A stretch of DNA of 64,000 nt from Sterolibacteriaceae bacterium (GCA_043738385.1 JAYUGL010000167.1:348-64347), one strand, 5' to 3'. Positions 38,370 through 59,429 are shown, counted from the stretch's first letter. Program-made: numbers and translations. The notes: a model not told the origin generated them from the sequence alone.

Positions 38370-38372
38370 AAC

Positions 38373-38804
38373 TTAGAATTGCAGGCAGAAGTCGATCAGC
38401 CGCGTCTTGGACCAGTACACCTTGCCCAGATAAAAGCCGGGCCCGATGAGCCGGATTTCGTCGCGTACCCAGTGTGCCAGCAGCGAAGTCTCGGAGTAAT
38501 CCAGCACGATGCATTCTTTGTCGTCGAGCCAACTCTTGCCTTTGTATACCTTGGCAACTATAGCCTCAAGCCCGAACGCCAGGATTTTGTTTTTCAGCAC
38601 ACCTTTTTGTGCGTCGAACACTTTGCCCTGCCATCCGAAGTGATTAATGATCTCGGCGATATTTGCCGTGTACGCCGTTCCCGGCGCGATGATCGCCGTA
38701 CCCTTGGCCTGGCCATTCGGAATGTCGCCCACCGGGCTGGCCTTAAACAGATCGTCGAGTTGAACCTGTGACATCGATATCAGTTTTGCTGCGTCGTATT
38801 CCAT
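38373..38804 (-). CDS. Hypothetical small protein
   Basis: ORF 38373..38840. AGGAG is followed by ATG candidates at 38810 and 38804. No recognisable motif. Lies 3 nt upstream of the next gene. Confidence 0.5.
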   Translation of the reverse strand: MEYDAAKLISMSQVQLDDLFKASPVGDIPNGQAKGTAIIAPGTAYTANIAEIINHFGWQGKVFDAQKGVLKNKILAFGLEAIVAKVYKGKSWLDDKECIVLDYSETSLLAHWVRDEIRLIGPGFYLGKVYWSKTRLIDFCLQF

Positions 38805-38866
38805 TGCCATCTCCTGAGTTGAAATCCCGCTGTAAAACAACCAAACGCGCGCTCAAGCACGGTGCA

Positions 38867-40717: not shown

Positions 40718-40734
40718 CGCGCCTAAGGATTGAC

Positions 40735-43251
40735 TCAGAACGTCTTTATGAAGGCGATCAGGGCACGCTTATCCGCGTCGCTTAACTCTGGTTCTGTTGC
40801 GAAGGCTTTTTCGTCGCTGCTCAAGCCGTCCTGCTTGTTGAATTCGGCGGTACCGAAATAGTGACCGCGATTGACCACAAAGTCCGGGCATTTGCTGAGC
40901 TTCAGCATCGGTTCACGCAGGTTCGCGAACCTGGCGCGCAGTTCGTCATCACTCGCACCCGCCGGCGCTGTGGCCAGATCCACTTTCAGCTTGACGAGCA
41001 ACTCGCCGACATCCTTCACGTGCGCGACCTTGTCCGCGAGGCTGTCGCTCTCGGCACGTAACTTGAGATTTGCGAGCAAGTTGACCGGCACGCCCTTCGG
41101 AATCGGTCCGAGCACGATATCGCCACCCGCATCGACCAGCCACGGGAACCAGCGATGCAATGTGCTCTGTAGCGGCTGCAGGGCCTCGGGTACATAGCCG
41201 CGTGGAATCGTCACGTTGCTGCGTTCAGTGGTCCGATCGATGGTGCCGAGAACCTTGTTGCCCAGCACGGAGTCGCGCTCGCGCTTTTCAGGCCACAACA
41301 TCTGCTCGATCGACGCCTCGAAAACCTTGACGCGGGCATCCACTGAAGGACTGGCATCGAAGGGGCCGACGCTATTGTTCAGCAGAAACGGCGCCGTGGA
41401 CCAGATGCTGATGAGCGAGGGAACGCGCGTGTAGCCGCGCCCACCTGCCGGCATCGCGTACGGCACCAGTGCGCCGGTGTACGGATCGCTCAATGTCACC
41501 GTTCCCACCGAGGGCAATTGTTTGTACGTGTGGGACGAGAAGTTGTCCCAGATATTACCGGCAAGCGCATTCGTGGCCAGCGGGCTGCACACGTTGGTGC
41601 GCAGCAAGGTTGCCGGAATTCGCGCATCGGTCGAGAGATAGTTACCCTGCAGGAAGTCAGGTGCCTGCACGATCTTCCGCATCTGCGCCTTGTAATCATC
41701 GGTTTGTGTCCACGTCCAGTAACGCTTGAAGCACCCAAGGTAACCGGCGCCCATGCATTGGGTAAGCTTCAGATCGTCCGGAGGGCTAGGCGCTTTGCTC
41801 GAATGACATCGGGCGCACGTATCCGCGAACACGTTCTTGCCCTGCGCCAGCATTGCCGAGCCGTCGGCAAGATATTTGTCGCCACCGGGCGCGTCCTTAA
41901 GCCGGTCTGGTTGCGCCGCCTTGAGGAAAAACAGCGCCGTGTTCGGTGTGCCCGCTTCGGTCGCTTGCCAATAGGTGGAGTTCTTCTGGGCGGTGGCAAT
42001 TTCAATCGGCGAAATGTCCTTGCCGCCAACCACCGGATTGAAATGCCGTAACCACTCTTCGCTGTAGACGCCAATGTTCATGTAGACGCGATTGAGTGCT
42101 CCAAGCAGCCCCACCGAGTCGGCGCCGTCCTTCAATACATGTGGCGTAAGCACAATGGCGTCTTGCTTGGCATAGAAATCAAGCAACGGACCACTGGTCA
42201 GAAAATCATTGAACTGTTTGTTATTGAGTTCACCGCCGGCCAATGTTTCCCGGCCAATTTTTTTGGCCATGCCCATGCGTGCCACGAAATCATAGAGGGC
42301 GTTCATGGTGCGCGGATTATTGATGCCATCGGTCGAAATGAGAGAGGTGTCCATTGAGCCGGGGCGATAGGTGTGCGCGAGCTGATACATGTAGTTCGTG
42401 CGACCCTCCGGCTTGTTGGAATTAAAGATGAATAACCGGTCCACCCACATGTATTGCGAGCCCACCGAAGAACTCAAGTTGGCAAACTTTGGATTGGCGG
42501 GGTCTACCGGCGGGTTAACCGGACTGGGGCCAATATGGCAAAAGCCGCATGCCATGCCGATACGGTAGGGTCGCACCAAATCCTTGCGGTTGTAGTAACC
42601 GGGGTCGGAGTAATAGCGTTCCGGATCCCACGCTTTGGCGGCCTTCGCGTCAAAATCCGGGTTCGGAAACAAGCGCAGGCCCATGACCCCCGTGGAATAT
42701 CCGTAGAACGACCCTACCGGCTGAGTCGTGCCGTCTCCCAAGGGTTTGCCCCTCGCACCAATGGCAACGCCCGGATACTTGCTTTCGTTTTCAAACGGAT
42801 CCGGCGCGCAATCCTTGCCGCGCACATCGAGCCACAGGCCGCGGCGATTCTTGTCTGGCCCCTTTGCAGGCTCAAAGCAGGGCTCGTTGACAAGCCCGAG
42901 GTAATTCCAGCGACTGGTCCGGGAGTAACCGAGGCTGGGGTGTGAACTAATGATCTTCAACAGGTCGAACGCACCGAAGGTGTACTCGGTCATGGCGTTC
43001 CAGAGGCGATCGTTGCCACCGCTCCAGACATTCCACATGTTACGGCCCTTGATCTCTTCAGCCGTGAGGGTCACTCCGCCATCCATGTCGTGGAAATAGT
43101 CTTCCGACGCGTGCTGGAACGAAGTCACGTCACGACCGGCGCGTTTCGCCTCGTCAAGCACCGCTACGGATTGTGTCTGCTTGGAACAGCCTGTGAAAAG
43201 CAGGCCGGCGAGGAGGATCAGGGTTGCCGATATCCAGAGTTTTCGGATCAT
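40735..43251 (-). CDS. Lipoprotein with two CxxCH haem-c motifs (cytochrome-c-peroxidase-like, large)
   Basis: ATG 43251 gives MIRKLWISATLILLAGLLFTGC (lipobox). CGFCH at nt 42535-42549 and GKNVFADTCARCH at nt 41803-41817. Confidence 0.7.
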   Translation of the reverse strand: MIRKLWISATLILLAGLLFTGCSKQTQSVAVLDEAKRAGRDVTSFQHASEDYFHDMDGGVTLTAEEIKGRNMWNVWSGGNDRLWNAMTEYTFGAFDLLKIISSHPSLGYSRTSRWNYLGLVNEPCFEPAKGPDKNRRGLWLDVRGKDCAPDPFENESKYPGVAIGARGKPLGDGTTQPVGSFYGYSTGVMGLRLFPNPDFDAKAAKAWDPERYYSDPGYYNRKDLVRPYRIGMACGFCHIGPSPVNPPVDPANPKFANLSSSVGSQYMWVDRLFIFNSNKPEGRTNYMYQLAHTYRPGSMDTSLISTDGINNPRTMNALYDFVARMGMAKKIGRETLAGGELNNKQFNDFLTSGPLLDFYAKQDAIVLTPHVLKDGADSVGLLGALNRVYMNIGVYSEEWLRHFNPVVGGKDISPIEIATAQKNSTYWQATEAGTPNTALFFLKAAQPDRLKDAPGGDKYLADGSAMLAQGKNVFADTCARCHSSKAPSPPDDLKLTQCMGAGYLGCFKRYWTWTQTDDYKAQMRKIVQAPDFLQGNYLSTDARIPATLLRTNVCSPLATNALAGNIWDNFSSHTYKQLPSVGTVTLSDPYTGALVPYAMPAGGRGYTRVPSLISIWSTAPFLLNNSVGPFDASPSVDARVKVFEASIEQMLWPEKRERDSVLGNKVLGTIDRTTERSNVTIPRGYVPEALQPLQSTLHRWFPWLVDAGGDIVLGPIPKGVPVNLLANLKLRAESDSLADKVAHVKDVGELLVKLKVDLATAPAGASDDELRARFANLREPMLKLSKCPDFVVNRGHYFGTAEFNKQDGLSSDEKAFATEPELSDADKRALIAFIKTF

Positions 43252-43491
43252 TGCAGATCTCCTTTTTCTCTTTCGTTGGAAAAACTGGAAGTTCAAATGG
43301 ACCCTTTAATAGTATCTTCGAGCGAGACAGGTGCAGTCAACCGTTTTCGTTTTGCAAAAGAAGGTCCAAACGTCCTGTGCGGCTGGTAACACTGGATCAA
43401 AACAGCATAGCCGCGTATGATAAATTCAGACGTGTGGGATTTTCGTGGGGTTGGGTTTCCTGTTCGTCCTGTCGGTTTAAAAGAGACGATC

Positions 43492-43522: not shown

Positions 43523-44566
43523 ATGATGCTGAAACGCGAGAAGTGCCCGTTTTTCCTTGTCTTTCTGCTACCGATGGTGGCGGCGTGCGGCGTGACTCCG
43601 CAAACAGCTGACAATCCCCGGATGACTTCTGCCTGTCAGGTCGAGCGGTCGGCCAGCCCAAGATCGGCGGCGCCGAGCAGCGGATTCTCGATGACCTTTG
43701 GCGGCTTGGGCGCGAGCGGCGGCGGTTCCCGTCCGCAGCGGGGTGAATGCGACGGCCCATGCCCCAGGGACAGCGCCGGTTCCCGCAGCAGCGTGGGAGC
43801 GGGCTTGTCCCTCAACCTCGGCGAACTGTTTCGGCACCTGTCCACACCCGAGTTACCAAACCGGTTGTTCGACGAAGGTCCCCGCTTCGAAGATGCCTTC
43901 AGCATGGCCTGCATCCCGGTACGCGGTTTTGTTCGCGGTGGTTGGCCCCTGGTCATCGATTATCAGGCGGAACCGGGGACCGTTGCTTCGGTGGAAATTC
44001 ACGTCGAAGGGCAGGATCCGGTGGTGTTGCCTTTGCCCAGCGGTAGTCAACGGAATGTACTCAAACTGAAGCTGCCCGAACGGCTGGGTGACAAGCTCAC
44101 CACGGCCTTGTTCCTGGTGCGCGGGGTCAAAGACCAGCCGGGTGCGCCGGTACTCGGCCGGGTTCAGGTGTTCGGGCTGGGCGCCGGACCGCGGGCCGTG
44201 GGCTCGGTCGCCATCGACCAGGTGGACTTCAAGCCGGGGGTAGTGCATCTCGGCAAGAAGGAGACCGCCCGCTTCAGCTTTTATTCCCGCTCCGACTTCA
44301 ATCGGGCCGTGGCCGAGATCATGCGGGTGGACAATCAAAACGGTGACCTTCAGGTACGCTTGGCCCGATCCATTCCATTGGAAGGCGGGGTGGCAGCCGG
44401 TACTTGGGTTGGCCGCCAGGAAGCGCGCCTCTGGGACGGTACCGACGCCAATCGGCAGGCTTCTCTGGGCCAGCACCTGATGCAGGTCCGGGCCTGGCTC
44501 GGCGCCCAGGAGGGTGGCGACTGGGTTGCGGCTTGGTCGGCCGGGTCGGTGGAGGTTGCGCGCTGA
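43523..44566 (+). CDS. Lipoprotein with C-terminal Ig-like (FlgD_ig-like) domain
   Basis: Signal peptide plus lipobox (LLPMVAAC). The C-terminal WDGTDANRQASLGQHLMQVRAW resembles FlgD-type Ig-like domains. The stop is 4 nt before the next ATG. Confidence 0.6.
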   Translation: MMLKREKCPFFLVFLLPMVAACGVTPQTADNPRMTSACQVERSASPRSAAPSSGFSMTFGGLGASGGGSRPQRGECDGPCPRDSAGSRSSVGAGLSLNLGELFRHLSTPELPNRLFDEGPRFEDAFSMACIPVRGFVRGGWPLVIDYQAEPGTVASVEIHVEGQDPVVLPLPSGSQRNVLKLKLPERLGDKLTTALFLVRGVKDQPGAPVLGRVQVFGLGAGPRAVGSVAIDQVDFKPGVVHLGKKETARFSFYSRSDFNRAVAEIMRVDNQNGDLQVRLARSIPLEGGVAAGTWVGRQEARLWDGTDANRQASLGQHLMQVRAWLGAQEGGDWVAAWSAGSVEVAR

Positions 44567-44570
44567 CGCG

Positions 44571-46118
44571 ATGTTTGCTTCGGTACTCCGCTACCGCTGG
44601 CTGCGCGCGCTGCGGGCCCGTTGGCCATGGGCCGTGGGCCTCTTGCTGGTCATCCTTTCTGGCCAGTTCGCGCTAACTTCGCCACGCAGTGGCGTAGATC
44701 TCGCCGCCATCGGCGTGCTAAAGCCGGTGCCAGGCCAAGCCATCGCCCTGCGCGGCTTGGCGACGGAAGGTAATATCCTCACCTATACGGCGGGCGCGGA
44801 AGGCGGCCTCGATCTCCGCTTCGAACGAGCCCGCTTGGCGCCGGAAACCCTGGCACTGCTCAGCCACCTTGGCATCGTCGCGCCAACCGGTGAGGCGCCC
44901 GTGAGTTGGATCACCCGTGCCGAGCCTGGGATCGGCAAGGAAACCAAGTCGCGTTTCGAGGTGACGGCAGCTGACCCCAACCGGCTTCCGGACATCTTCG
45001 TATTGCGCGTTCTCCCCGGCGCCACCCCGCGCCAGGCGCGCCTCGAAATGGTCTCCAGCGGTGCGCCGCTGGCGGTAATCCTGTCCTTGCCGTGGACCGG
45101 CGCGGACCATGCGCCCCGCAAGATCCTGCGGCTCGGCGCGACCGACCTGGTCCTCCCGGGAACCCTGCCGATCAAGCTGCTGGTGCCAGCCGATGCACGC
45201 TGGCGGGCGATCATCTCGCTGCCTGAGCAGCCCGTACCATCCGCCGCGCTAATCTTCGGGGCCTTCTCCGAACGAGATGGTGGCGGGCTGGCGGCAGCTG
45301 CGCTCGGCCTGGAGCCGGTGCCCGGAGCGTCAGCCTTCCTTGCCTGCGGTACCGCGGCGGGAAGTCTCTTGTGGCGTGCTGCCAGCCGATTGGCCGCTGG
45401 CGCCTGCCCGCCGACCGATCATGCCATCCAGGTACGTTCCCTGACCTTGCGTGCGGATGGTGCAGACTTGGTCGTTGGCGGCAACGCCTGGGTACTAAAG
45501 GATAGCCAGCCCCTTGGCGAGGACCTTCTCGTGCACCTGCGCCGGCAGCCTATATGGTGGGCTTTGCTTCTCCTGGCGGATGGACTGCTCCTCGCCTGGG
45601 CCCTGCTTGCCCTGCTGCCCGGGCCCCGCCGCATTGATCTGCGCGGTGTCTTCATCAGCTATCGGCGTGCCGATAGCGGGCCCCGTGTCGGGCGACTTTA
45701 CGACCAACTGGTGGCGAGACTGGGCGCCGAGAAGGTGTTCATTGATCTCGAGTCGATCCCCGCGGGGACCGACTTTAAGCACTTTATCGCTGACAGCCTG
45801 AGCAAGGTGGACGTGGTTCTGGCGGTGATTGGCCCGCATTGGCTCGACTTGAGGGATGGCAGCGGTCAGCGTCGGCTGGATGCGGAGAACGATCTGGTGC
45901 GCCGGGAGATAGCCGCCGCCCTCGCTGGCGGTCTTCGAGTGATCCCGGTGGTGGTGGGCGGCGGTTCGATGCCGACTGCGGGACAGTTGCCTGCCGACCT
46001 CGCCGCCCTGGCCGGCCGCAATGCCGCAGAGATCGGCGACCGCCAGTTTCTGCGCGACGCCGACGATCTGATTGATCAGATCGAATACGCCCCCCTGCGT
46101 TCCGGTTCAGCAAGTTGA
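44571..46118 (+). CDS. Membrane protein with extracytoplasmic domain, second TM and C-terminal TIR domain (TIR-B)
   Basis: ATG 44571. N-terminal anchor WPWAVGLLLVILSG, ~290-aa hydrophilic region, TM IWWALLLLADGLLLAWALLALL, then TIR (VFISYRRAD, GRLYDQL, DLVRREIAAAL, VIPVVV). Confidence 0.8.
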   Translation: MFASVLRYRWLRALRARWPWAVGLLLVILSGQFALTSPRSGVDLAAIGVLKPVPGQAIALRGLATEGNILTYTAGAEGGLDLRFERARLAPETLALLSHLGIVAPTGEAPVSWITRAEPGIGKETKSRFEVTAADPNRLPDIFVLRVLPGATPRQARLEMVSSGAPLAVILSLPWTGADHAPRKILRLGATDLVLPGTLPIKLLVPADARWRAIISLPEQPVPSAALIFGAFSERDGGGLAAAALGLEPVPGASAFLACGTAAGSLLWRAASRLAAGACPPTDHAIQVRSLTLRADGADLVVGGNAWVLKDSQPLGEDLLVHLRRQPIWWALLLLADGLLLAWALLALLPGPRRIDLRGVFISYRRADSGPRVGRLYDQLVARLGAEKVFIDLESIPAGTDFKHFIADSLSKVDVVLAVIGPHWLDLRDGSGQRRLDAENDLVRREIAAALAGGLRVIPVVVGGGSMPTAGQLPADLAALAGRNAAEIGDRQFLRDADDLIDQIEYAPLRSGSAS

Positions 46119-46248
46119 TTTGCGCGTGCGCCATAAAAAGTTTCACTGCGAGATGCAAATCGTTCCTGACGCTGCTGATGCATAGAGGATTTGTTGGGGC
46201 TTCACCTCCGCCAAGTTGCTCAAGTTGACGCACACAACGCATGCCATT

Positions 46249-46278
46249 GGAAAACGCAGCGTCGAAAACGGACGCTGC
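46249..46278 (-). terminator. Terminator candidate in the convergent gap between TIR-B and TIR-C
   Basis: 8-bp stem GCAGCGTC/GACGCTGC (46256-63 / 46271-78) with a 7-nt loop, followed on the minus strand by GTTTTCC. Confidence 0.35.
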
Positions 46279-46384
46279 TCAAAAGGAAAAATCGACGTTG
46301 AAGGCTCGCGCATTGCGAGCGCGGGGACGAAGGCAGAAAAAGCAAACGTAAAGAAGACGGCCACGGCAAAAGCGCCGACAGTGC

Positions 46385-47191
46385 CTACATGCACTTCGAT
46401 TGCCACTGCGAGCCGCCGGCAGGGCAATAGCCGGCGCAGGCTGCGGCTTCGTGATATCCGGAAGCGCATTGCGGATTCGGTTGGCTGACTCCCAGGGCCA
46501 CATATCCCCAGCAACCGCATGCCGACGTCGGCATGCCGCTGGCCAGCCCAACCTGTTGCGGCGGCAACTGCTGATTGGGTGGCGTGGACGATTGCTCAAT
46601 GAGGAGTCCGATTACGATCAGCCCGACGAAGATGCCGCCAATCCAGGCCAGCGTTTTCACCAGCTTTGACGATGGCGGAGTCGAGGGCGGCGACGGCACC
46701 CTATTGTCGCCCCCGGGGGTCGGGATGGGGCGCAACCCCAAGCTCTCCAGCGCCGCAGCCAGTTGCTGCACGTCGTAATCCCAGCGCTCGTCCGACAAAG
46801 TGAGCGCCTGACGCCGGGCCAGCGGCTTGAGGTCCTCGGGCAGGTCTGCGTCAACGGGTGACGCGGCGCCTTCCACCAGCACCGGAATCACCCGGATGCC
46901 GCGCTTGAGCGCGGCCGCGATTTCCAGCCGAATCCAGTCATTGGGGAGGTGCAGCCGACTCTGATCTCCGCTATCGCCGGCCCAGCGGCGGCCGATGACG
47001 GCCAGCATGACCGAGCACGACGAGAGCGCACCCTCGATGGCTTCGACGAAGTCAACACCGGGCTGGATGGTCTCGACGTCGCGGAATATCTGCGCCTTGC
47101 CGAAACGCCGCTCCAGGCTGTCGGCCAATCGCCCGGCAGCACTCTGGCTGTCCTGGCGCCGGTAGCTGATGAAAATGCCTGACGCTGCCAT
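46385..47191 (-). CDS. TIR domain, single TM, Cys-rich tail (TIR-C)
   Basis: IFISYRRQD, GRLADSL, DWIRLEIAAAL, VIPVLV. TM LAWIGGIFVGLIVIGLLI. The last ~44 aa contain 6 Cys. Confidence 0.8.
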   Translation of the reverse strand: MAASGIFISYRRQDSQSAAGRLADSLERRFGKAQIFRDVETIQPGVDFVEAIEGALSSCSVMLAVIGRRWAGDSGDQSRLHLPNDWIRLEIAAALKRGIRVIPVLVEGAASPVDADLPEDLKPLARRQALTLSDERWDYDVQQLAAALESLGLRPIPTPGGDNRVPSPPSTPPSSKLVKTLAWIGGIFVGLIVIGLLIEQSSTPPNQQLPPQQVGLASGMPTSACGCWGYVALGVSQPNPQCASGYHEAAACAGYCPAGGSQWQSKCM

Positions 47192-47347
47192 TGTTATCGC
47201 CTTTCGTTGAACACTGAATCGTCATGCCTGTCTTTGATGCTGTGTAGCACTACAGCCCGTGTCCTGTTGTCGATCATTCGGCCCAGCTTCTAGCCTGAGC
47301 CCATGCTACCTGCGGCATATTTCAATGTAAACCGCGGGTCGTCGCGC

Positions 47348-48517
47348 TCACACGAATCCGGCGAAATGGGCCGGCTGCACCTGCTTCGCGGCGGCTTGGC
47401 CGACCTTCTGGATCTCGGCTATGTATTGCACCGAATCCAGCATCTGGACGTGGTTCGGATCGACCTCCGCGAGACCCAAAGCGTCGAGGCCCGCGCGGCT
47501 CAGGTCCGCGTCATAACGCAGGTAGGTGAACAGCTTGGCGCCGGTCCAGTTGCTCTGGTCGCCGGGTTGTACCAAGAGGCCGCCGATCTCGCGATCAATC
47601 GGCCCGCCCGCGCGGCATGCGCCGAGCATCCGACACGCCGTGTCCCAGCCGGCAGCGGCGGCATTCATCAGCGCCGCCGGAATATTCTTGACGTGATCGA
47701 GCAGCCATAGATCATCGGCCTTCAGTTCCGGCCTGGCCATCGCCGCGCCGCCCGTGCCGACCGATACGATCAGCAGCTTGTCCGCGCCTGTGGGCCAATT
47801 CACCTTGTACGGCGCCGTAGTGGCCATCTGGAAGGCGAGAAAAGCTGGGTTGTTGTAGGTCGTCACACCGCCGTCTACAAATACGAACTGATACTCGTTT
47901 GGCGTACCTTCGGCGAAAGTCACCACTTCGGGCGGAAAGAACGTCGGTGCTGCCGTGCTGGCCCGCACCAGTTGCCATAGTGGCAGGTTGAGGTTGCAGT
48001 CTTTGCGATCAGCCTGGTTGTACTTGCCCAGCGGATTGTTGAACACCGGCCAGGGCGAATCAGTGGTGTGGTTGCGCAGCACCATCATCAGCAGGGTGCG
48101 CAGGTTCGCGTCGCCCAGCGTGGCGGGTGGCACGTTGTCAGCATGGCCAAGCGCGCGGTTGAGTTCAGTGCGCAGCTTTCCGGCCAACGGCTCATCGTTG
48201 TAGCTATAGCGCAGACGCTTGAAGAGGCTGGCCTTGTCGAACATCTGCTCGCCGCTACCAACGTAGAACGCGCGAATCCTGTCCATCGACATGCCGGCAG
48301 AGATGCAGGCGGCGATGATGGCGCCGGTGCTGGTGCCGCAAACGAAGTCGAAGTAATCGGCAAGCACCAGATCTGGCTTGCCGCACTGTTCGCGCAGTTG
48401 CGCTTCGATCCGCGCCAGGATTTCGACACTCATCAGGCCGCGGATGCCACCGCCATCGCAGGCGAGGATCTTCTTGGGGCCGGCGGACTGCATGCGCTTC
48501 AGGACCTGCTCGTTCAT
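47348..48517 (-). CDS. Patatin-like phospholipase
   Basis: DGGGIRG oxyanion loop, GTSTG nucleophile elbow and FVDGGV Asp motif. GGGAGA RBS. Confidence 0.9.
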   Translation of the reverse strand: MNEQVLKRMQSAGPKKILACDGGGIRGLMSVEILARIEAQLREQCGKPDLVLADYFDFVCGTSTGAIIAACISAGMSMDRIRAFYVGSGEQMFDKASLFKRLRYSYNDEPLAGKLRTELNRALGHADNVPPATLGDANLRTLLMMVLRNHTTDSPWPVFNNPLGKYNQADRKDCNLNLPLWQLVRASTAAPTFFPPEVVTFAEGTPNEYQFVFVDGGVTTYNNPAFLAFQMATTAPYKVNWPTGADKLLIVSVGTGGAAMARPELKADDLWLLDHVKNIPAALMNAAAAGWDTACRMLGACRAGGPIDREIGGLLVQPGDQSNWTGAKLFTYLRYDADLSRAGLDALGLAEVDPNHVQMLDSVQYIAEIQKVGQAAAKQVQPAHFAGFV

Positions 48518-48538
48518 GTCATTCTCCCAATACGTGTC

Positions 48539-50104
48539 TCAGGCGGACGGTCCGCCCGGCGCAACCGTGAACAACGCCTCGAACACTTCGCGTGCCTTGG
48601 CGGTATTCATGCGGCCAGCTTCCAGCCAAAGGAAACGTCCGCAGGGCGCGGCGCCAATATCGGCGGCGGCGGTCTGCCGGTCGGTTTTGTCATCGTAAAG
48701 CACAACGACACGACGCAGGTTCGCGACCTTGACCAAGACGCTCAGTTCGTAGCGGCAACCGTGGTTCTGCGATTGAAAGCCGCGCAGGTCCATGAGCACG
48801 ACGTCGCAGCGATTCACCAATGCGGTCAGCGCGGACTCCCAGGTCGTGTCGCGGCAGTAGCACTCGTTCACTCGATAGCGACCGTCCGGGTCGGGCTTGA
48901 GGTCGAAATTGGCCAGACGCTGCGGCACGTCGGGTTCGCTGTTGATGAAGCGTTTGCCCAGTTGCCCGTCGAGAAAAGTGAACAGGTCATCCGGATCGAG
49001 GGTACGGCTGACAAGGTCGGTGCCAGCGATCAGCATGGTGTTGCCGGTGAAGCGCCAGCGCTCGATCACCTGATCGAACAAGGCCTCCAGCTGCGCGTCA
49101 TGCTGAAAGACCCGCAGCACCAGCAAAGTGGCCGGGTTGTCTTCCCGCGGCCGCCAGATCGTCAGCACCCACCAGCCGACGGGGATCCAGAGCCACGGGA
49201 TCAACAAGCTCAGGCCGCTGGTGCCGACACCGGCAAATGCGGGAACGGCATTGCCCATGAGGATGACAAACCAATAGATGGCGAAGAGATAACCGAGATC
49301 GGAGAAACGCTTGTTGCGGTAAGCGCCGGCCATGCGACGACCTAGCGCGAACACCGGCCATGCAAGCAGCGCCCAGGGTGCCAGGGCGCAGAACAGCATC
49401 GTGCCCTTGACGCCGAAGACGTCGACCAATGGCGCCACAACCTGCCAGCTCGTGTTCACGTTGGTGCTGAGGGCCTGGAGCGCGAGGATCGAGGCACTGG
49501 AAAGAACCAGCGCCGGCGGCAACAGATAAGGCGCCACGGCCCGAATGCGACCACTGGCACTGATGATCAGTGTAATGATGAGTGGCACGCCCATCTCGGT
49601 GGACAACCAGCCGACGACCGCTAGCAGCGATTGCTGGGCATTGGAACGCAGCATCACGAGCACGATCATGATCACGAGATATATTGCGATGCCACCCAGC
49701 ACCCGGCCCCAGGGCCAGCGCAGGGTCAAGCCCCAGGCCAGCACCATCGGCCAGCCATAGACCGCGCCGAGCAGCAGTAGCCGATTGACCGAGAACGCCT
49801 TGACCTGAACGATCAAGGCAAACCACGCTTGCGTCAGCGCCACCAACACGCAAACCCCGGTCAGCGCCACCAGAAGGCGCATGGTCACGCGGCGATTTGC
49901 CGCGAGGTCCAACCGCGCTGGCATCCGCGGCGGCAAGGCCAACACCTCGGTAACGCCCGCACGCGCGACATCAGGCGCGGCCCCGCCACGCATCAGGATC
50001 ACCATGCGCCGTCGGTACAACCCGGCCACCACCCACGCAAGGCTGGCGGCGAGGAATACACCCAACATCAGGGCGACGAATAGGTGGCCGCTTTGAATTC
50101 CCAT
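48539..50104 (-). CDS. Multi-pass membrane protein with a C-terminal soluble alpha/beta domain of unknown function
   Basis: About 10 hydrophobic helices over the first ~320 aa, then a ~190-aa domain (LLVLRVFQHD...CDVVLMDLRGF...VVVLYDD) with alternating strand/helix character. No motif recognised. Confidence 0.6.
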   Translation of the reverse strand: MGIQSGHLFVALMLGVFLAASLAWVVAGLYRRRMVILMRGGAAPDVARAGVTEVLALPPRMPARLDLAANRRVTMRLLVALTGVCVLVALTQAWFALIVQVKAFSVNRLLLLGAVYGWPMVLAWGLTLRWPWGRVLGGIAIYLVIMIVLVMLRSNAQQSLLAVVGWLSTEMGVPLIITLIISASGRIRAVAPYLLPPALVLSSASILALQALSTNVNTSWQVVAPLVDVFGVKGTMLFCALAPWALLAWPVFALGRRMAGAYRNKRFSDLGYLFAIYWFVILMGNAVPAFAGVGTSGLSLLIPWLWIPVGWWVLTIWRPREDNPATLLVLRVFQHDAQLEALFDQVIERWRFTGNTMLIAGTDLVSRTLDPDDLFTFLDGQLGKRFINSEPDVPQRLANFDLKPDPDGRYRVNECYCRDTTWESALTALVNRCDVVLMDLRGFQSQNHGCRYELSVLVKVANLRRVVVLYDDKTDRQTAAADIGAAPCGRFLWLEAGRMNTAKAREVFEALFTVAPGGPSA

Positions 50105-50146
50105 ATCAACCGTCCCCGGGTTCAGCCACGCGTCTCGATATCGACC

Positions 50147-51088
50147 TCACGACGAACCGCCATCTCGCTTGGCGACGAACTCCACCGGCGTATGCACCGA
50201 ATACCCGCCGCTGATTTCCAGTGTGAAACGTATGCTTTCGGGCGTTACCTGACCGATGTAGTGATGCGTCACCTCCTTCGGTTCCCCGCCGCTGCTGATC
50301 GACTCCAGGCTGCGTGTCACGAAGCTCAGCCACTCGCCCTCCAGCTTTGCCTGTTCTATCGTCAGACGGCCCCCTTCGAATGAGGCCGTGCCGTGCAGCG
50401 CATTGGCCAGGTATTTGAACTCGAACACTTCGTCATACTGGTCGCCCCAGTCGTACTTCACCCGCGCGCTCCAGCGCCCGCTGAGATCCACTGCGGCTTG
50501 GTGCGCCACCGGGGTGCTTGTCGATGTTGCTGGAACAAAGCGCAATGCCGCAAACACACCGACCACGACAATCGCAACGGCCGCGACAATCAGGCGCGCT
50601 CGGCCGAAGCCAGGCTTTGCGTCGTGGGCTTCCGGCGACAACTCCCTCAATCTCGCCACCAGCCGCTCGACATCCGTCCGCCAGTCGGCATCGGACAACA
50701 CCATGGCCTGGTGGCGCGCCAGGCTGGCGATGGCATCGGGCAGATCCTCGCCAGCCGGCATTGCCGCGCCGCCCAACAGCAAGGGGATGACCGGCTTGCC
50801 GGACGCGAGCCCGGCAGCCACCTCGCGGCGAACAAAATCGTCCGGCGCATCGAGTCGTCGCCCGCCGTCGGCGCCGGCCTCCAGCCAGTGGGGTCCGATC
50901 ATCACCAGCATCGCGTGGGCGGACTGCAATTGTCTGTTGATGGCCTCGACGAAGTCCTCGCCGGGCTGAATGTCGTCCACATCGCGGAACACGCTGCCGA
51001 CCCCGAAGGCCGTCTCAAGCGCATCCGCCAGGCGGCCGGCGAAACCGGCGTTGTCGTCGCGACGATAGGAAAGAAAGAATCTGGGCAT
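50147..51088 (-). CDS. TIR domain, single TM, ~120-aa extracytoplasmic beta-rich domain (TIR-D)
   Basis: Internal ATG 51088 (MPRFFLSYRRDD). GRLADAL, DFVRREVAAGL, VIPLLL. TM LIVAAVAIVVVGVFAALRFV. The upstream part of the listed ORF overlaps the previous gene. Confidence 0.8.
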   Translation of the reverse strand: MPRFFLSYRRDDNAGFAGRLADALETAFGVGSVFRDVDDIQPGEDFVEAINRQLQSAHAMLVMIGPHWLEAGADGGRRLDAPDDFVRREVAAGLASGKPVIPLLLGGAAMPAGEDLPDAIASLARHQAMVLSDADWRTDVERLVARLRELSPEAHDAKPGFGRARLIVAAVAIVVVGVFAALRFVPATSTSTPVAHQAAVDLSGRWSARVKYDWGDQYDEVFEFKYLANALHGTASFEGGRLTIEQAKLEGEWLSFVTRSLESISSGGEPKEVTHHYIGQVTPESIRFTLEISGGYSVHTPVEFVAKRDGGSS

Positions 51089-51102
51089 GGAGAGAAACAG
51101 CG

Positions 51103-52464
51103 TTACCCGTTTTGCCCAAGATCCGCGGCGCCGAGGCAAGCGATTTCGGCCAACGACGACTGCACAGCCTTGATCTGGGTCGCGCTCGTTTCGAGCATCC
51201 AGGCGGGCACGTTCAACGCCCATGCTTCCGCCTGCCACTTGGCTGCCGCAGCGGTATCACCCAGCCCCACGGCCGCTTCGCGCAGCGTGGCGACAATCCA
51301 AAAGCGTTTCTCGGCATCGATATCCTTATCGAGCAGCGGTTGCGCGTACTGAATCACCAGGCGCCGGGTGCGTTTTGCCAGCACCGCGTCGGTCATGCCT
51401 TCGTCCCGGTCACCGGCCTTTAGCGCCTTCAAAGCCCGCATGTCCAGCAGATGGGCCAGATTGATGCCGTTGTAGTAGTCCTGCTTGAGATGGAAACCGC
51501 GCTCGCAGGCGGCGATGCTCTCATCGAGGTCCTGTTCCTGGTGGTTGAGATCCCACAGGCGCTTGTGGATGGCGCCCCACAAGCCCAGCGTTTCCGGATC
51601 GTTGGTGGTCGCCGGCGAGAGCTCGCGCAGGATGTCCTTGGCCGCCAGGAGCGCCGCGTCGGGCGTCGGCTGTTGAGACTTGTAGGTGGCGAGCGCGAGC
51701 TGCTGAATGACGAAGCTATCGTTGGGTCGTTGCTTGCGCACTTCCTCAAGCAACCGCTGGGCATTGGCGAAGTCCCCGGAACCGATCCTGCCCAGGGCAT
51801 CATCGAGGACCGACTTGGCGCTCGCGGCTTCCGGTTCCGGGCCTTCAGCGCAGGTGCCGGGGGACAGCTGCGGAGGCCGCATGCGCGCGACGATCGGGGT
51901 CAGGTGGTCTGCAACTGCTGGCCCGGTGCCTCCCGCCGCCACGGCGGCGGGAGGCACCGGGCGGGGCTTTTCCAGCTCCGGTGGAATCAGGTCGGGCAGG
52001 AAGGTATACACCGGGCTATCAATCTCCCCGCTCGCCAGGATGTCGGCGATGGCCTGCTTCAGGTCATCGCGGAAGCGCTTCGCCTCTTGCGCGCCGATGT
52101 CCTCGCCCAGATGCTTGTAGCGGCGAATGGCGATGTGGCCGACATCGAAGGGGTTCTTGAACTGTTCCTCGGCAACGATGATCGTGGCGCGATGTCGCAA
52201 ACCATAGCGGATGCCCAGCTCAAAGGCAGCGTTGACGTTGTAGGTGGATAGATCCGCGATGACCAGATCGGCCTGATACAACTGCCGGTACATCGGCGTA
52301 TCGATGGTGCCGGAGTGCGGAATCTCGTCGGCACGCAGGCATGCCAGACCCGCCGCTTCCACCGCCTCTTTGATGATGGCATAGGAAGCGTCAAGGTCGA
52401 GTACGCGCCCGTCGGTGAAATCGGTCTTCTTGCCAAAGCCCTGGACAACAAAACAAGTAGCCAT
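51103..52464 (-). CDS. TIR-like / nucleoside-deoxyribosyltransferase-like N-terminal domain + TPR-like helical domain (DUF4071-like)
   Basis: ATG 52464 with a GGAGG RBS 5 nt upstream. CFVVQGFGKKTDFTDGRVLDLDASY...DLVIADLS...ELGIRYG N-terminal fold, then a ~250-aa helical repeat region. Confidence 0.65.
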   Translation of the reverse strand: MATCFVVQGFGKKTDFTDGRVLDLDASYAIIKEAVEAAGLACLRADEIPHSGTIDTPMYRQLYQADLVIADLSTYNVNAAFELGIRYGLRHRATIIVAEEQFKNPFDVGHIAIRRYKHLGEDIGAQEAKRFRDDLKQAIADILASGEIDSPVYTFLPDLIPPELEKPRPVPPAAVAAGGTGPAVADHLTPIVARMRPPQLSPGTCAEGPEPEAASAKSVLDDALGRIGSGDFANAQRLLEEVRKQRPNDSFVIQQLALATYKSQQPTPDAALLAAKDILRELSPATTNDPETLGLWGAIHKRLWDLNHQEQDLDESIAACERGFHLKQDYYNGINLAHLLDMRALKALKAGDRDEGMTDAVLAKRTRRLVIQYAQPLLDKDIDAEKRFWIVATLREAAVGLGDTAAAAKWQAEAWALNVPAWMLETSATQIKAVQSSLAEIACLGAADLGQNG

Positions 52465-52490
52465 CAACGGTCCTCCAAATTCGACAACAC

Positions 52491-53060
52491 TCAGGCAACT
52501 GCCTGCTTCAGGCCGGTCTCGTAGATCCACTGCCCGCTGCGCGGATCGCGGATGTAGCTCAACTGCTGGCGCCGGTTGGCGCCCTGTCCGGGCGCTTTCA
52601 CCGAGATATGCACCCATCCCGAGTTGGGCCCCTGACGCGGATCGAAGCATTCACAGATGATCTGATCATAGTCGGCAAGGTTGTCGCGCGCCCACTTGGC
52701 CAGTTCCAGTGTGCTCTTGCCGGGGATCTCGACGTCGCAGGCGCAGCCCCGCGTGTGCTGGCTGGTGCTGATCCAGCCAGCCGGCTTTTGTTTCAACGCG
52801 CGCTCGGTCGCCTGGCTGCGGAAAACGCTGTTGGGCGCAAAACTGCCGAACTTGTCGCGCAACACCTGCAAAACATTTCGCGCCAGATACACCGCCGCTT
52901 GCAGTTCGGCGTCGCCGGGAAATCCATTGTCAATACCGAGCCGACTGGCGACTTCGGACTTGGTGAGTTCAAAGACGTGAAAATTCGGCGCGACGAGGTC
53001 TTGCAGGTCCAGCGCCCGGAGCGTGATCTTGTCGAGCGGCGTGGTGGATCGGTCGGTCAT
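52491..53060 (-). CDS. Peptidase M15 (D-Ala-D-Ala carboxypeptidase/endolysin-like) zinc hydrolase
   Basis: Internal ATG 53060 (MTDRSTTPL). Hx6D (HTRGCACD) and distal WVHISV His motifs of the M15 family. The listed ORF's Arg-rich N-terminal extension overlaps the upstream giant gene. Confidence 0.7.
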   Translation of the reverse strand: MTDRSTTPLDKITLRALDLQDLVAPNFHVFELTKSEVASRLGIDNGFPGDAELQAAVYLARNVLQVLRDKFGSFAPNSVFRSQATERALKQKPAGWISTSQHTRGCACDVEIPGKSTLELAKWARDNLADYDQIICECFDPRQGPNSGWVHISVKAPGQGANRRQQLSYIRDPRSGQWIYETGLKQAVA

Positions 53061-53085
53061 GACGGTCTCCCTGGGTCTGTCCGGA

Positions 53086-56000
53086 TCACAGTGCGGCGCG
53101 GACCGACTTGATGGCCTCGGCCGCTGGCAAAGATGCGATGCCGGCGAGTTCGGCCACGAAGTCCAGGTGTTCCAGCACCGACGCGTATTCGCGCGGGCTG
53201 GCGCCACGTTGTGCCGCGGCCCGGTAGCGCGCAACGATCCTGCCCACCGACTGCGTCGCCGCGTTGCCTGTCTGCAAGAGCAAGCGCGCCAGTTCGCAAT
53301 CGGCCTCGCCGACGGCATCCCAGAAGTTGGGGTTCGCCTCCTTACGCGCTGTGGCGATGGCAATCATGCGCTGGCATTGGTCGTCGACAATGCTCCGCCA
53401 ATGGTCACTGCGCGTGCGATCGAGGACGGCGACGAATACCGTGGCAATGGCCCAGTTGGAGAACGGGTAGGGATTCTCGTTGTTGCCCCGCTTGAAGGCC
53501 TGGTGGTAGTAGCTGGCCATATTGACCAGCGCCTCGAAACGCGGTGTCGCGTCGTCGCACACCCAGGCCAGGCGCTTGCAGGCGCCGCCGAGGAGATTGA
53601 GCCGCTCGACCGTCGGCGCGCGCTGGCAGATCACATCCAGTTCCCTGACGGCGTGCTCAATGTCCGCGACGAGACCGCGGCGATCCGCCGCCTTGCCGCG
53701 CTTGCTGGCGCGCAGAGCCTGCCAGCGCTGACCGCAGAGCCGCACCTGGAAGTTGGCGCACTGCTCCACCGCGCGCAGCGGACAATCACCGAGATCAGCA
53801 TGCAACGCCTTGTTCAGCCATTCCACACCCTTGGCATACTCGCCGGTTTCGCCCCAAGCGAAGCCGGCGGCGGCGGCGACGTCGGCACGCGCGGCCCACT
53901 CCCCGCGTTGCGCTTCCGGAGCGCCTGCCAGCAGTGCGTCGATCGTTGCCCGCATGCGCGCCACAGCCTCCACGTCCTCGCCTTTTTCCTTCATCTGCAT
54001 GCGAATCGATTCGCGATGGTTGTCGAGTTCGGCGACCAGCTCGGCCGGTGCCAGGAAGCTGGGCTGCGACGGCCGCGCGGAACCTTCGCCGCGGAGGCGG
54101 TAGCCATGGTCGCCGTAGCATTGATATGCGCCCCAGGTATTCACCTCGGGAAAGCTGGCCCAGACCGCGGCGCGCGCCGCTTTCACCGCTTCGCCAAAAG
54201 TCATGGGGCAGTCGGGGTCAAGCATATGCCGGTAGAAACTCTCGGCAAACGCGCCCGCCGCCCCGTCGTCAACCGCCCAGCCCGCCGCCACCACCGCCTT
54301 GACCCCCATATTGATGAACTGTACGCCCAGATTCGCCGCCAGCGCACTGTATTCGCCGTGTCCTTCGGCCTGCGTCTTGCCCAGGTGACAGCAGTTGATG
54401 AACACGAGCTCCGGCACCCAGCGCATCTGTTCGATATCGCCCGGCGTCAGGAAGGTGTTCTTGCCGATGACCATGCCCGACACGCGCCGCTCCGGTTTGG
54501 AACTGGCCGTGATGTCCTGAACGGACTGCGCTCCGTCATCGTGAGCAGCTCCGGTGTCGTCGTTCAGGACGAATTCGTGCTCGCCGTGGCCGGCCAGGTG
54601 CAGGATGCGCCAGGCATCCTTGTGCAGTCCGTCCATCAGATCTTCGGCGTTCTCATCGATGCAGTCCCTGACCCGGAAGCCGCGCCGGCTGAGCAGGGCG
54701 GACACTTTCTGCGCCTCGTCCCGTGCGCCGGGCAGTTCCGGAAACTCGCGCCAACCGCCGAGGTCGGGATTGCCTACGACGAACGCCGTGGCTTCGGTCG
54801 CGTGATGGGGGTTGAGCCGGAACTGGGGCGTCTTCAACTGGCGGATCAGGCCCGCGCTCACCGCCGGCGGACGTCCGCTCTGGCTCCAGCGATCCTCGAT
54901 CAATTCCCACGGATAGCGCGCGGAGACTTCGTCTACCAACAGGACCATGTCGGTCTGTTGGGGCGCAAGTTCCTTGAGCTGATTGGGCAGCAGCATCTCG
55001 AACAGCGTCTTGGCCACTTCCGAATTGCTGGCCGGCGAGCGTGAGGCCTGGCGAATGAAATCCTCGGCGAACCGCAATTGGCCCGTGGCATGGGTAATCT
55101 CGGCGCGGGCGCGGTCGGTCGCCGAGATGAAGCGCAAGCCGCCATCGCCTTTCTCTTCGATGATCTCCAGCCGGCCCCACCAACCCGGCGCATCGTCGTA
55201 GCGCAGGCGACGGCGACAGCCCTGACCTTCCTCGACCACCCCGGCGCTCCAGTTGACCGCAGTCGCCAGTTGACCGTCCGCCAGGAGTGCTTTGAGGGCC
55301 TTGGCGGCGGCAAGCGCGGCGTCCTCGAAAACGTCCACGAACTCGATCCTGTCAACCAGCACCTTGTCCGCCAGTTCAGCCTTCTCAAGTCGCTCGTTGG
55401 CGAGCACGGCACCGCGCAGGATGACTTCGACACAATCCCGCACGCTCGTGCCGCCCGGGCCGGAGCCGACCAACAGGCAGGAAACCGCCGCCGAACGCAC
55501 ACCGCCGCTAGGGCCGAAACGCGCATCGGGCCACCGGGCCACCTGTAGCGCGTAGTCGAGCAGCGCGGCGCACACCGTGGTCTGGAGCACCGTGGTGGAC
55601 AGGCTGCCGACTTGGCCGAGACCGATGACGATGGCACCGCCGGGCTTGCCGCTCGGCTGTTCGTTGAAAAAGACGGCATGCGTTCCGGGCTGGCCGGGGT
55701 AGAGCCCGAGCCCCAGACTCTTCGTCAAAACGCGGCCGAGCCGCCCGTCCAGCGCAGCTTCGGCATTGACGATGACGTCGCCCAGGTAGTGGCCGACCAG
55801 CACCGGGTATCTGGCGTAGGAGAGATCGCCATGCACGACGCTGACCTGGATCCTCGGTGTCGTCATCTGATCGGCGGCATCCTCGACCGGCGCGCCGGGG
55901 CCAAAGCCCATGCTGCGCATGTCGCGCTGGTCGGGAATGCTGTCGGTCGGCGGCAGCGTGGGCATAACGAATTTTTCGGCGCCGGTCGTTGCGGCGCGCG

Positions 56001-58637: not shown

Positions 58638-59429
58638 TCAGGTGAACACGTCGAATCGGCGGGCGGCCGCGCTGCCGAATATCTGCGGGTGCTGCGGCAG
58701 TTTGCTGGAAGGCAGGTAGGCACTGATCAGTTTGAACCAGTCGTCATAATTGGACGGCGCGTCCTCGCGCAGCGTCTTCAGCGCGTAGTAGGTGAAGGCG
58801 CCGTTAGGCCGGCCATGGAAGCGCGTATCCCAGCTGTATTCGGAATCCTCGGCGCCAGCCAAAAGCAGATCGCCGCCGCTGCGCTTGAATCCGTGCACCA
58901 GGGTCTTTGGCCGCTTCGCGGTTGCAGGCAGCTTGCCCGCCGGCATCCAGTCCTGCAAGGGCATGTAGCGGGCGCGCGGCATGCCGGGGGCGGGGTCGGT
59001 TGCATCGCCGCGGGTTACCGAACCGGAGTGGCAGCTGTCGGAGAGCAGCAGGACGCGCACGCCATTCGCGCGCCGGTCGAAAAGTTGATGGATCTCGTCA
59101 TCGAGCAGTGGCCCCGCGCTGCTGATATCCCAGGGGCAGAGACCCTCATCACGGCCATCGGGCTCATCGCCGGAACTGTCCGGCACCCAGGTGCCATGCC
59201 CGGAGTAGGTGATGACCACGGTATCGCCTGACGACACGCCGGAGATCGCCGCGCCGATTAACGCCGCCATGTTAGCCTTGGTGGCCTGGCCGTCGAGCAA
59301 CTTGGTAATGGTGAAGCCGCGCTTGGCGAGTTCCGTCGCCCAGTCATTGGCATCGTTGACGCAGCCGGACAAATCGTTCTGGGTGCCGGGATAGTCGTTG
59401 ATGCCTATGCAAAGTGCCTTCTTCGCCAT
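58638..59429 (-). CDS. Caspase-like peptidase (C14 family, metacaspase/orthocaspase type)
   Basis: ALCIGINDY, His motif YSGHG (His78, nt 59196-59198) and Cys motif LSDSCHSG (Cys133, nt 59031-59033). AAGGAGGA RBS. Confidence 0.9.
   Translation of the reverse strand: MAKKALCIGINDYPGTQNDLSGCVNDANDWATELAKRGFTITKLLDGQATKANMAALIGAAISGVSSGDTVVITYSGHGTWVPDSSGDEPDGRDEGLCPWDISSAGPLLDDEIHQLFDRRANGVRVLLLSDSCHSGSVTRGDATDPAPGMPRARYMPLQDWMPAGKLPATAKRPKTLVHGFKRSGGDLLLAGAEDSEYSWDTRFHGRPNGAFTYYALKTLREDAPSNYDDWFKLISAYLPSSKLPQHPQIFGSAAARRFDVFT

Follow-up and report, generated by a model that had tools for sequence, protein, structure and literature searches.

A stretch of 64 000 nucleotides from a Sterolibacteriaceae bacterium (GCA_043738385.1, JAYUGL010000167.1:348-64347; referred to as the window) encodes four proteins, TIR-A to TIR-D, in which a TIR domain is combined with predicted membrane segments. 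Gene order and homology place two of them, TIR-C and TIR-D, in one recurring minus-strand locus (about 46385-58590) next to an effector of a kind activated by a TIR-made signal, which suggests a defence system that senses trouble outside the cytoplasm. Our preferred reading, which could well turn out either way, is that these proteins are membrane-anchored, periplasm-sensing, ThsB-like TIR NADases of a Thoeris-like system. Thoeris and other bacterial TIR systems, as described in the available parts of the literature compared, are intracellular. A TIR sensor that spans the membrane and faces outward would add a new place for bacterial immunity to perceive attack.

Four TIR domains with a conserved glutamate

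The genes for TIR-A (32996-34174, minus strand, 392 amino acids), TIR-B (44571-46118, plus strand, 515 amino acids), TIR-C (46385-47191, minus strand, 268 amino acids) and TIR-D (50147-51088, minus strand, 313 amino acids) were all found where an earlier note on this DNA had placed them. Their products match Pfam TIR_2 (PF13676) with 44.3, 51.0, 61.1 and 55.7 bits (E 3.1e-11, 2.5e-13, 1.9e-16 and 8.6e-15, respectively), all above the gathering cut-off of 28 bits. The databases scanned here and below were PADLOC 2.0, Pfam 2025 and NCBIfam 2026. The start codons ATG 44571 (TIR-B) and ATG 51088 (TIR-D) are the same as in the respective orthologues. A six-frame hmmsearch of the window with a profile built from the four domains matched exactly these four genes and no fifth TIR. 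The TIR motifs listed in the earlier note were all recovered, with one small departure in TIR-A, which reads VLAVVG instead of a sequence ending in IG. Pairwise identity among the four domains is 42-51%. Genes in other genomes are closer to each of them (53-70%), and we therefore rejected a recent tandem duplication.

The codons 33905-33907 (TIR-A), 45906-45908 (TIR-B), 46922-46924 (TIR-C) and 50822-50824 (TIR-D) each encode the Glu of a D[FLW][VI]R[LR]E pattern, and the position does not vary among the four aligned domains. The proposal that it corresponds to the catalytic residue of TIR NADases was confirmed by alignment. The best match among solved structures is the TIR domain of SARM1 (phmmer against PDB, E 3e-7). 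HMMER pairs DWIRLEI of TIR-C with DWVHKEI of SARM1 and puts E90 of TIR-C on the Glu that, counted along the full-length SARM1 chain, is E642, the catalytic residue (PMC7075850). The Glu is also kept in all 83 non-orthologous relatives of the TIR-B TIR domain. In the BB-loop, which reads [ED]-[STD]-I-x-[AP]-G in the window proteins, positions 1 and 6 of SARM1 are kept and position 2 (K/R in SARM1) is changed. The aligned Glu points to NADase activity of the four proteins.

The earlier note had further described each TIR as membrane-tethered and joined to a different module, and both points are borne out by Kyte-Doolittle hydropathy, Cys counts and structure prediction. TIR-A combines an N-terminal TIR_2 domain (33725-34174) with a Yip1-like polytopic domain of five hydrophobic segments (32999-33589). 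TIR-B begins with an Arg-rich signal-anchor (44571-44675), followed by a beta-rich ectodomain of 291 residues (44676-45548), a transmembrane (TM) segment at residues 327-352 (45549-45626) and a C-terminal TIR domain (45642-46085). TIR-C has its TIR domain (46742-47191) first, then a TM segment at residues 176-202 (46586-46666) and a tail of 66 residues with exactly six Cys (46388-46585). TIR-D is built in the same order, with a TIR domain (50639-51088), a TM segment at residues 160-190 (50519-50611) and a C-terminal part of 118 residues (50150-50503), which AlphaFold2 models as a nine-strand meander barrel (pLDDT 91.6). No Pfam match to this barrel was found even at E <= 5. Foldseek returned weak matches only (avidins, nitrobindin, lipocalins and the Cap15 barrel; E >= 3.5e-3, TM-score 0.5-0.6), and we did not assign the barrel to any of these families.

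Charge distribution argues for a cytoplasmic TIR domain. In 116 TIR-D orthologues the mean number of K+R is 4.0 on the TIR side of the TM segment and 1.2 on the far side, in line with the positive-inside rule. Cys residues are restricted to the outer modules (six among the 66 residues of the TIR-C tail, two invariant positions in the TIR-B ectodomain), the TIR domains having none or one. Hydropathy, charge bias and Cys distribution are thus compatible with a predicted order of outer head, TM segment and cytoplasmic TIR. PASTA and LCCL are extracytoplasmic domains, and since such heads follow the TM segment in paralogues of TIR-C, they support the predicted topology, in which the variable module would be periplasmic or intramembrane. 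A hydrophobic segment directly after the TIR domain is present in 59 of the 83 non-orthologous relatives of the TIR-B TIR domain, so that membrane tethering appears to be a trait of the TIR subfamily.

The recurring TIR-C/TIR-D locus

The minus-strand genes run in the order caspase, giant CHAT-TPR-S protein, M15 peptidase, ThsI homologue, TIR-D, TM521 (a polytopic protein of 521 residues), patatin and TIR-C, with gaps of 47, 25, 26, 14, 42, 21 and 156 nt.

The ThsI homologue (51103-52464) ends 14 nt before the start of TIR-D on the same strand. Its N-terminal domain (about 51985-52464), with the motif ADLVIADLSTYNVNAAFELG, is NDT-like or 'CMP-hydrolase'-like; taken alone, it gives a weak Nuc_deoxyrib_tr match (E 0.22). 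It is followed by a Pfam TPR-S domain (about 51445-51774, E 1.7e-24), and MAP3K_TRAF_bd is matched as well. The protein is 37-38% identical over 400-426 residues (E 2e-88) to plasmid proteins annotated as 'TRAFs-binding domain-containing', which have the same Pfam architecture and are encoded 4-6 nt upstream of small TIR genes. Those small TIRs are in turn 76% and 56% identical to published, validated type VIII ThsB TIRs (10.64898/2025.12.03.692087). Because of this full-length homology to effectors adjoining such TIRs, we assign the protein to the type VIII effectors. The available part of the Thoeris survey describes the effector ThsI as 'CMP hydrolase and TPR', which responds to canonical cyclic ADP-ribose (cADPR) produced by its TIR partner, and gives type VIII as abundant in Pseudomonadota (Yirmiya et al., bioRxiv 10.64898/2025.12.03.692087). 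By homology and gene order, the window holds a type VIII effector, placed as in type VIII operons, beside a TIR of another kind. An effector that could read a TIR product, as in Thoeris, lies upstream of TIR-D, with its TPR-S domain; TIR-A and TIR-B are not accompanied in this way.

A plasmid with a type VIII-like pair of ThsI and TIR genes, pB19293_6 of Klebsiella pneumoniae (L015, 3513-6709), carries a second pair made of a TIR gene and a DUF4231 (SLATT) gene. Both pairs adjoin sul1, qacEdelta1, qnrB6 and a Tn3 transposase gene, so that Thoeris-type genes travel with a resistance region.

To follow the locus through other genomes, we used a profile of the TIR-D barrel and one genome per species, which gave 48 loci (27 with close TIR-D orthologues, 19 with more distant homologues). 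Most are from Betaproteobacteria, namely Rhodocyclales, Thiobacillaceae and Burkholderiales. In the 27 loci with close orthologues, TM521 is present in 15, patatin in 12 and a ThsI homologue in four, and two to four TIR_2 genes occur in 13. The usual order is TM521, patatin, a TIR-C-like gene, TIR-D and a further TIR-C-like gene on a single strand. Two loci (L011 and L035) are near-complete copies of the island in the window, with the CHAT-TPR-S giant upstream of patatin, ThsI, TM521 and TIR-D. Gene order across genomes thus makes TIR-C and TIR-D members of one recurring locus, in which TIR-D is the invariant and TIR-C the variable-head member.

TIR-D itself has 737 homologues, with more than 120 clusters that match it along the full length at 58% identity or above. 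Median identity is 67% for the barrel and 70% for the TIR domain. Because conservation of the barrel equals that of the TIR domain, the outer part of TIR-D is not diversifying. In the TIR-C-like genes beside TIR-D orthologues, the TIR domain shares 59-67% identity with that of TIR-C, and at least five unrelated modules follow their TM segment: two LCCL domains (eight Cys), three PASTA domains, a beta-rich module of about 110 residues, an alpha/beta module and the six-Cys tail seen in the window. Genes with different heads often stand in tandem; on contig L012, TIR-D, a TIR-LCCL gene, a TIR-PASTA gene and a fourth TIR gene are consecutive. No relative of the six-Cys tail was found among the loci fetched. 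The head of about 110 residues with the pattern 'GxWxDAEGG' was considered as a relative of the TIR-D barrel, and hhalign comparison was negative.

At the level of the gene family, these data describe a single TIR-TM scaffold that takes different heads and is accompanied by a TIR-D that stays the same. The earlier note had seen such a set of alternative heads on one signalling domain within the window. The idea holds for the scaffold and its five or more heads across genomes, but not for the four genes as one repertoire: TIR-C and TIR-D form one locus, TIR-B has a cassette of its own, and TIR-A stands alone 10 kb away. The swapping or diversification of ectodomains for which the note suggested tests was likewise found for the heads of TIR-C-like genes, but not for the conserved outer domain of TIR-D. 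The contrast drawn with a single ThsB-type enzyme has to be given up, as TIR-D is encoded directly downstream of a full-length ThsI homologue and described Thoeris loci can carry several TIR genes (type III; 10.64898/2025.12.03.692087).

TM521 (48539-50104) has about seven to eight membrane segments and a C-terminal domain (48542-49147) predicted to be cytoplasmic. It belongs to a family of 895 homologues for which Pfam has no entry. The C-terminal domain carries the motif DVVLMDLRGFxxxNxGCxxEL with an invariant Glu. Matches to Pfam Nuc_deoxyrib_tr lie below threshold in 13 of 17 members (best E 1.6e-4), at the region of the catalytic Glu of that family. From these sub-threshold matches and the motif, the domain is probably NDT-like and of the same kind as in ThsI. 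The two NDT-like domains (48542-49147 and 51985-52464, both minus strand), one fused to the polytopic membrane domain of TM521 and the other to TPR-S in the ThsI homologue, share the motif D-[LV]-[VI]-x-x-D-L-...-N-x-[GA]-x-x-x-E-L. Profile-profile comparison of the TM521 C-terminal domain with TIR domains was negative. A profile search of the PDB gave XRCC4 matches only, which we regard as spurious. No model for TM521, the TIR-D barrel or the TIR-B cassette is present in the three databases scanned.

TM521 genes often directly adjoin a TIR gene, with gaps of 3-42 nt. Scanned from the TM521 side, 11 of 29 informative metagenomic loci contain a TIR gene and 18 do not; TM521 is therefore not a dedicated TIR partner, and we rejected it as a TIR-dedicated effector. 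In Hydrogenophaga (L013/L014, 6350-11021), pgpA and thiL, normally neighbours in E. coli, are separated by a TM521 homologue together with a soluble TIR_2 protein of an unrelated kind. In several metagenomic loci TM521 apparently occupies the same spot with no TIR gene beside it.

The patatin-like phospholipase (47348-48517; Pfam Patatin, E 2.8e-23) is a candidate effector. It matches a PADLOC model for phospholipase effectors of the CBASS type (E 2.3e-44) and reaches 115 bits with NCBIfam CBASS_lipase, which is under the cut-off of 200. The CHAT giant (53086-58590) is 1834 residues long and contains, according to Pfam, a DUF7379 domain, an LCAT-like lipase domain, a CHAT protease domain and TPR-S. 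It is a candidate for a second TPR-S-bearing receiver or effector, so that the array holds two co-directional TPR-S proteins with neighbouring gaps of 14-47 nt.

Between the giant and the ThsI homologue, a gene for an M15-like peptidase is wedged in (52491-53060; start inferred at ATG 53060; Pfam Peptidase_M15_3, E 1.3e-6). It is missing from the equivalent loci L011 and L035, and its membership of the system is uncertain. Enzymes of this kind are cell-wall peptidases of the D-Ala-D-Ala type, which is of interest beside the peptidoglycan-binding PASTA heads of paralogous TIRs. The caspase-like gene (58638-59429; Pfam Peptidase_C14, E 7.1e-24) lies 47 nt upstream of the giant and matches NCBIfam caspase_w_EACC1 below threshold. 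It is part of a co-directional minus-strand run (58638-63986) upstream of the giant, made up of the C14 caspase, a 273-residue protein with weak TPR signals, a clostripain (C11), an open reading frame of 161 codons and a 450-residue protein with faint alpha/beta-hydrolase signals. This concentration of proteases and lipases of the cell-death type could be part of the same system or stand apart from it.

Other gene arrangements were seen around TIR-D orthologues. In L007 (5516-8948; contig of a 5.7-Mb genome), a pair resembling type VII Thoeris, made up of a TIR-TPR protein and a membrane protein of the SLATT/DUF4231 kind, is encoded beside the membrane-anchored TIR-D orthologue and divergently to it. 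Large WD40 beta-propeller proteins are encoded directly upstream of TM521-patatin-TIR arrays in L012 (3722-6784) and L008 (5055-6812), and one of them has an N-terminal TIR with a ThsB_TIR match. The WD40 proteins may be extra cytoplasmic sensors of the same systems.

Comparison, proposed mechanism and alternatives

With type VIII Thoeris the locus shares the full-length homologous effector, its TPR-S/MAP3K_TRAF_bd domains and its position immediately ahead of a co-oriented TIR gene; both are found mainly in Pseudomonadota. It differs in the TIR, which is a small soluble ThsB in type VIII and a TIR_2/SARM1-like domain with TM segment and outer beta-barrel here, and in having a second TIR, patatin, the polytopic NDT-like protein and the CHAT-TPR-S giant in addition. 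Among named proteins, all four window TIRs come closest to TIR4/ThcB4 of type III Thoeris (NCBIfam, E 3e-11 to 3e-6; BLAST, 31-41% identity; E 3e-11 to 3e-5 for the resemblance to TIR4), and type III loci such as that of P. aeruginosa L0872 also contain several TIR genes. The type III effector, however, is a SLOG protein, and no SLOG match was found among the window neighbours scanned with Pfam, PADLOC and NCBIfam; the available published description gives its TIRs no membrane anchor. No Pfam ThsB_TIR match was obtained for the window TIRs. The locus appears to work like Thoeris and to have the type VIII effector, but its TIRs fall outside types VIII and III.

SARM1 has the box-1 sequence FISYRR, the [ED]xIxxG pattern of the BB-loop with its Gly, and DW[VI]xxE with the catalytic E642 in common with the window TIRs. 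It is a soluble, mitochondria-associated protein regulated by ARM and SAM domains, whereas here the membrane anchor and outer modules would take this role. The order of TIR-B (ectodomain, single TM segment, cytoplasmic C-terminal TIR) is that of animal Toll-like and IL-1 receptors; as in these receptors, the class carries many heads on one kind of TIR domain, and ligand-driven clustering is plausible. In contrast, the window proteins have no leucine-rich repeat or immunoglobulin heads, and TIR-A, TIR-C and TIR-D are inverted, with the N-terminal TIR inside and the C-terminus outside. Moreover, they are SARM1-like with an enzymatic Glu context, while the TIR domains of Toll-like receptors (TLRs) are adaptor scaffolds; TLR subgroup 3.2 (TLR1, 2, 6, 10) keeps the Glu too (PMC7075850). 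The likeness is one of architecture, without sign of common descent, and would offer a testable bacterial parallel to the animal TLR layout with a TIR most like SARM1.

TirC of Dictyostelium (PMC13142454) is similar in that a single hydrophobic helix tethers an active bacterial-type TIR NADase and controls its toxicity. It differs in lacking an outer sensor domain, in the N-terminal position of the helix, and in being a eukaryotic protein derived from TIR-STING-type TIRs. CBASS provides the closest likeness for patatin (CapV-type lipases), and the TIR-D barrel has weak fold likeness (TM-score about 0.5) to the nucleotide-binding barrel of Cap15, which also combines TM segments with a beta-barrel. 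No CD-NTase was found among the window neighbours, however, and patatin stays under the CBASS_lipase cut-off. The barrel of Cap15 is cytoplasmic, whereas that of TIR-D is predicted outside the cytoplasm.

In the available parts of the papers of the Aravind group, TIR figures among the effectors of conflict systems in multicellular bacteria, and TM-linked PASTA, OmpA or CHASE2 heads are described on other effectors. A TIR-TM-head receptor class is not described in the portions of these and the Thoeris texts that were compared. The survey (10.64898/2025.12.03.692087), in its available part, names phospholipases and TM proteins among its untested effector types, and may already list this locus. 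For an E. coli system with TIR and TM parts (PMC11350192), the text is silent on whether both are in one protein.

According to the proposed mechanism, an envelope or periplasmic cue (e.g. phage attack on the envelope, or cell-wall fragments) would bind or perturb the outer module, and the tethered TIR domains would then cluster within the membrane plane. To our knowledge, all characterised TIR NADases need self-association, and because of this we expect that clustering would complete the active site around the conserved Glu. NAD+ would be cleaved to a signal of the cADPR family. Two proteins would sense this signal through their TPR-S domains, namely the CHAT-lipase giant and the ThsI homologue, the latter as an NDT-like nucleotide hydrolase; patatin and the polytopic, NDT-like TM521 would add to these effectors or act independently. 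TIR-D, which is invariant, may work as a pair with the TIR-C-like protein and its exchangeable heads, and TIR-C and TIR-D would be the signal-generating, ThsB-like components of the minus-strand locus. We entertain only tentatively the stronger form of this proposal, namely true bacterial trans-membrane TIR receptors with an invariant helper (TIR-D) and a variable TIR-C-like sensor, whose NAD-derived product switches on TPR-S-gated effectors. If true, this would be a bacterial counterpart of cell-surface sensing of the TLR type, and a type of Thoeris that detects attack before the cytoplasm is breached.

Several findings weigh against the Thoeris-like reading. Among the close TIR-D orthologues, the four neighbouring ThsI genes are a small minority of 27, and the 19 barrel-bearing homologues of lower identity (39-46%) each occur as a solo gene. 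TM521 does without any TIR in the 18 metagenomic loci mentioned above, and no domain recognisable as a signal sensor is present in patatin. Similarity to the validated type VIII ThsB TIRs is lacking in the window TIRs (BLAST E >= 0.004), their NCBIfam ThcB4 scores are 26-43 bits against a cut-off of 220, and PADLOC ThsB matches are partial, covering about 60 residues. Topology of the four proteins is a prediction from hydropathy only. Finally, no phage, integrase, restriction or CRISPR genes were seen within the window, and the source is an uncultured Rhodocyclaceae-like bacterium.

The solo homologues, 19 of the 48, fit a different explanation, which we consider somewhat unlikely and still the most serious competitor: each TIR protein would be a self-contained sensor and effector that depletes NAD+, leading to abortive infection or growth arrest, and makes no signal, with the nearby patatin, TM521, ThsI and protease genes being independent systems in one defence island. 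TM521, which frequently stands alone, could be such a neighbour. SARM1, the closest solved relative, is generally known to work through NAD+ destruction. Single-protein TIR defence systems also exist in E. coli (PMC11350192). For TIR-A and the cassette of TIR-B, since no effector gene adjoins either, we regard this as the probable mode of action; they would be separate modules that kill alone. For TIR-C and TIR-D, it conflicts with the tight co-directional spacing (3-42 nt) and a gene order that recurs across genera, and with a ThsI homologue placed in the effector-then-TIR arrangement of type VIII operons. It would also leave the two TPR-S proteins of the array without a signal source.

A role outside anti-phage defence appears improbable. 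The TIRs would then serve envelope-stress or cell-cell signalling, or programmed death in flocs or biofilms of an Accumulibacter/Propionivibrio-like host, either as cyclases for an NAD-derived second messenger or as non-catalytic scaffolds. This would agree with the conservation of TIR-D and TM521 (55-70% identity across orders), unusual for arms-race genes, and with the enrichment of caspase, CHAT and TIR assemblages in bacteria of multicellular habit (PMC7159879, PMC8195603), whereas the homology to ThsI, an experimentally validated family of anti-phage effectors, argues against it. Presence of the locus is patchy, with variable flanks among relatives, which also speaks against such a role. 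In its favour, the locus is chromosomal and no mobile-element genes are in view; neither a tRNA nor an integrase gene was found at the island border, and a scan for promoters and terminators was uninformative. Yet the G+C content, about 0.57-0.61 over the last 10 kb ahead of position 44 kb (and 0.53-0.62 in the whole left part), climbs to 0.62-0.67 between 44 and 62 kb. The rise coincides exactly with the start of the TIR/patatin/protease array and therefore suggests that the array from 44 kb is an acquired island.

We give very little credence to the anchor being a restraint from which an island protease (caspase C14, CHAT or clostripain C11) frees the TIR to oligomerise and destroy NAD+: the array does hold three cysteine-protease genes, the TIR-D orthologues of L009 and L025 have a caspase gene in their vicinity, the TIR-TM linker is poorly conserved and Pro/Ser-rich, and in amoeba TirC removal of the TM helix unleashes toxicity and proteolytic release has been proposed (PMC13142454), but most orthologous loci are without proteases (caspase 1/48, CHAT 1/48), and a mere tether would not need a conserved barrel or ligand-binding heads such as PASTA and LCCL.

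The analysis defines a recurring, unnamed gene set of TIR-TM-barrel, head-swapping TIR-TM-X, patatin, a polytopic NDT-like protein and sometimes ThsI. Its hosts are for the most part Betaproteobacteria, including many uncultured lineages from the environment, and it can be cloned and tested directly. Two uncharacterised families, with hundreds of members each and no Pfam model, are now linked to TIR biology.

TIR-A, the TIR-B cassette and flanking genes

TIR-A is a solo gene amid metabolic genes. Its polytopic domain belongs to a family with at least 84 representative clusters. Among 56 homologues scanned, 32 have an N-terminal TIR_2 domain and 11 match Pfam Yip1 (PF04893; best E 1.1e-9); on these counts the combination of TIR and a Yip1-like domain appears to be a recurrent architecture. 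The window protein itself gives no Yip1 match even at E <= 5. The polytopic domain was not found near TIR-D orthologues in the 48 loci scanned.

TIR-B is preceded on the plus strand by a gene (43523-44566) whose stop codon lies 4 nt before the TIR-B start. The product is a predicted secreted protein with a signal peptide and a VAAC lipobox, and has no match in Pfam, PADLOC or NCBIfam. In two gene neighbourhoods that are otherwise unlike each other, the gene immediately preceding the TIR-B orthologue encodes a homologue of this partner (79% and 42% identical). The homologue in L004 likewise begins with a signal peptide; the lipobox was noted for the window copy. Neither TIR-B nor the partner gene has a counterpart in any of the 48 loci scanned around TIR-D orthologues. 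Gene linkage thus makes TIR-B an independent two-gene cassette with a secreted partner, apart from the TIR-C/TIR-D locus.

Eleven clusters of full-length TIR-B homologues were found among 5.8 billion, one of them 98% identical and ten being orthologue clusters at 37-76%; the closest named orthologue (75%) is from a metagenome-assembled genome of Propionivibrio. The ectodomain is an orphan, and two Cys residues in it are invariant. It diverges faster than the TIR domain (45-47% versus 69% identity in one comparison, 33% versus 52% in another). An AlphaFold2 model of the ectodomain from eight sequences was poor (pLDDT 56.6), and the Foldseek matches obtained with it were meaningless (TM-score about 0.1), so that no fold was assigned.

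The left part of the window (1-44000) contains housekeeping and lipid-metabolism genes (MetH, acyl-CoA ligases, P450, thiolase). Between TIR-A and the island, a minus-strand block (34322-43296) includes large open reading frames of 413, 432 and 155 codons with no Pfam match, a GMC oxidoreductase gene and a gene for an 853-residue protein with a faint cytochrome-c motif only. The same block flanks the TIR-B/TIR-C region in a metagenomic contig (L001).

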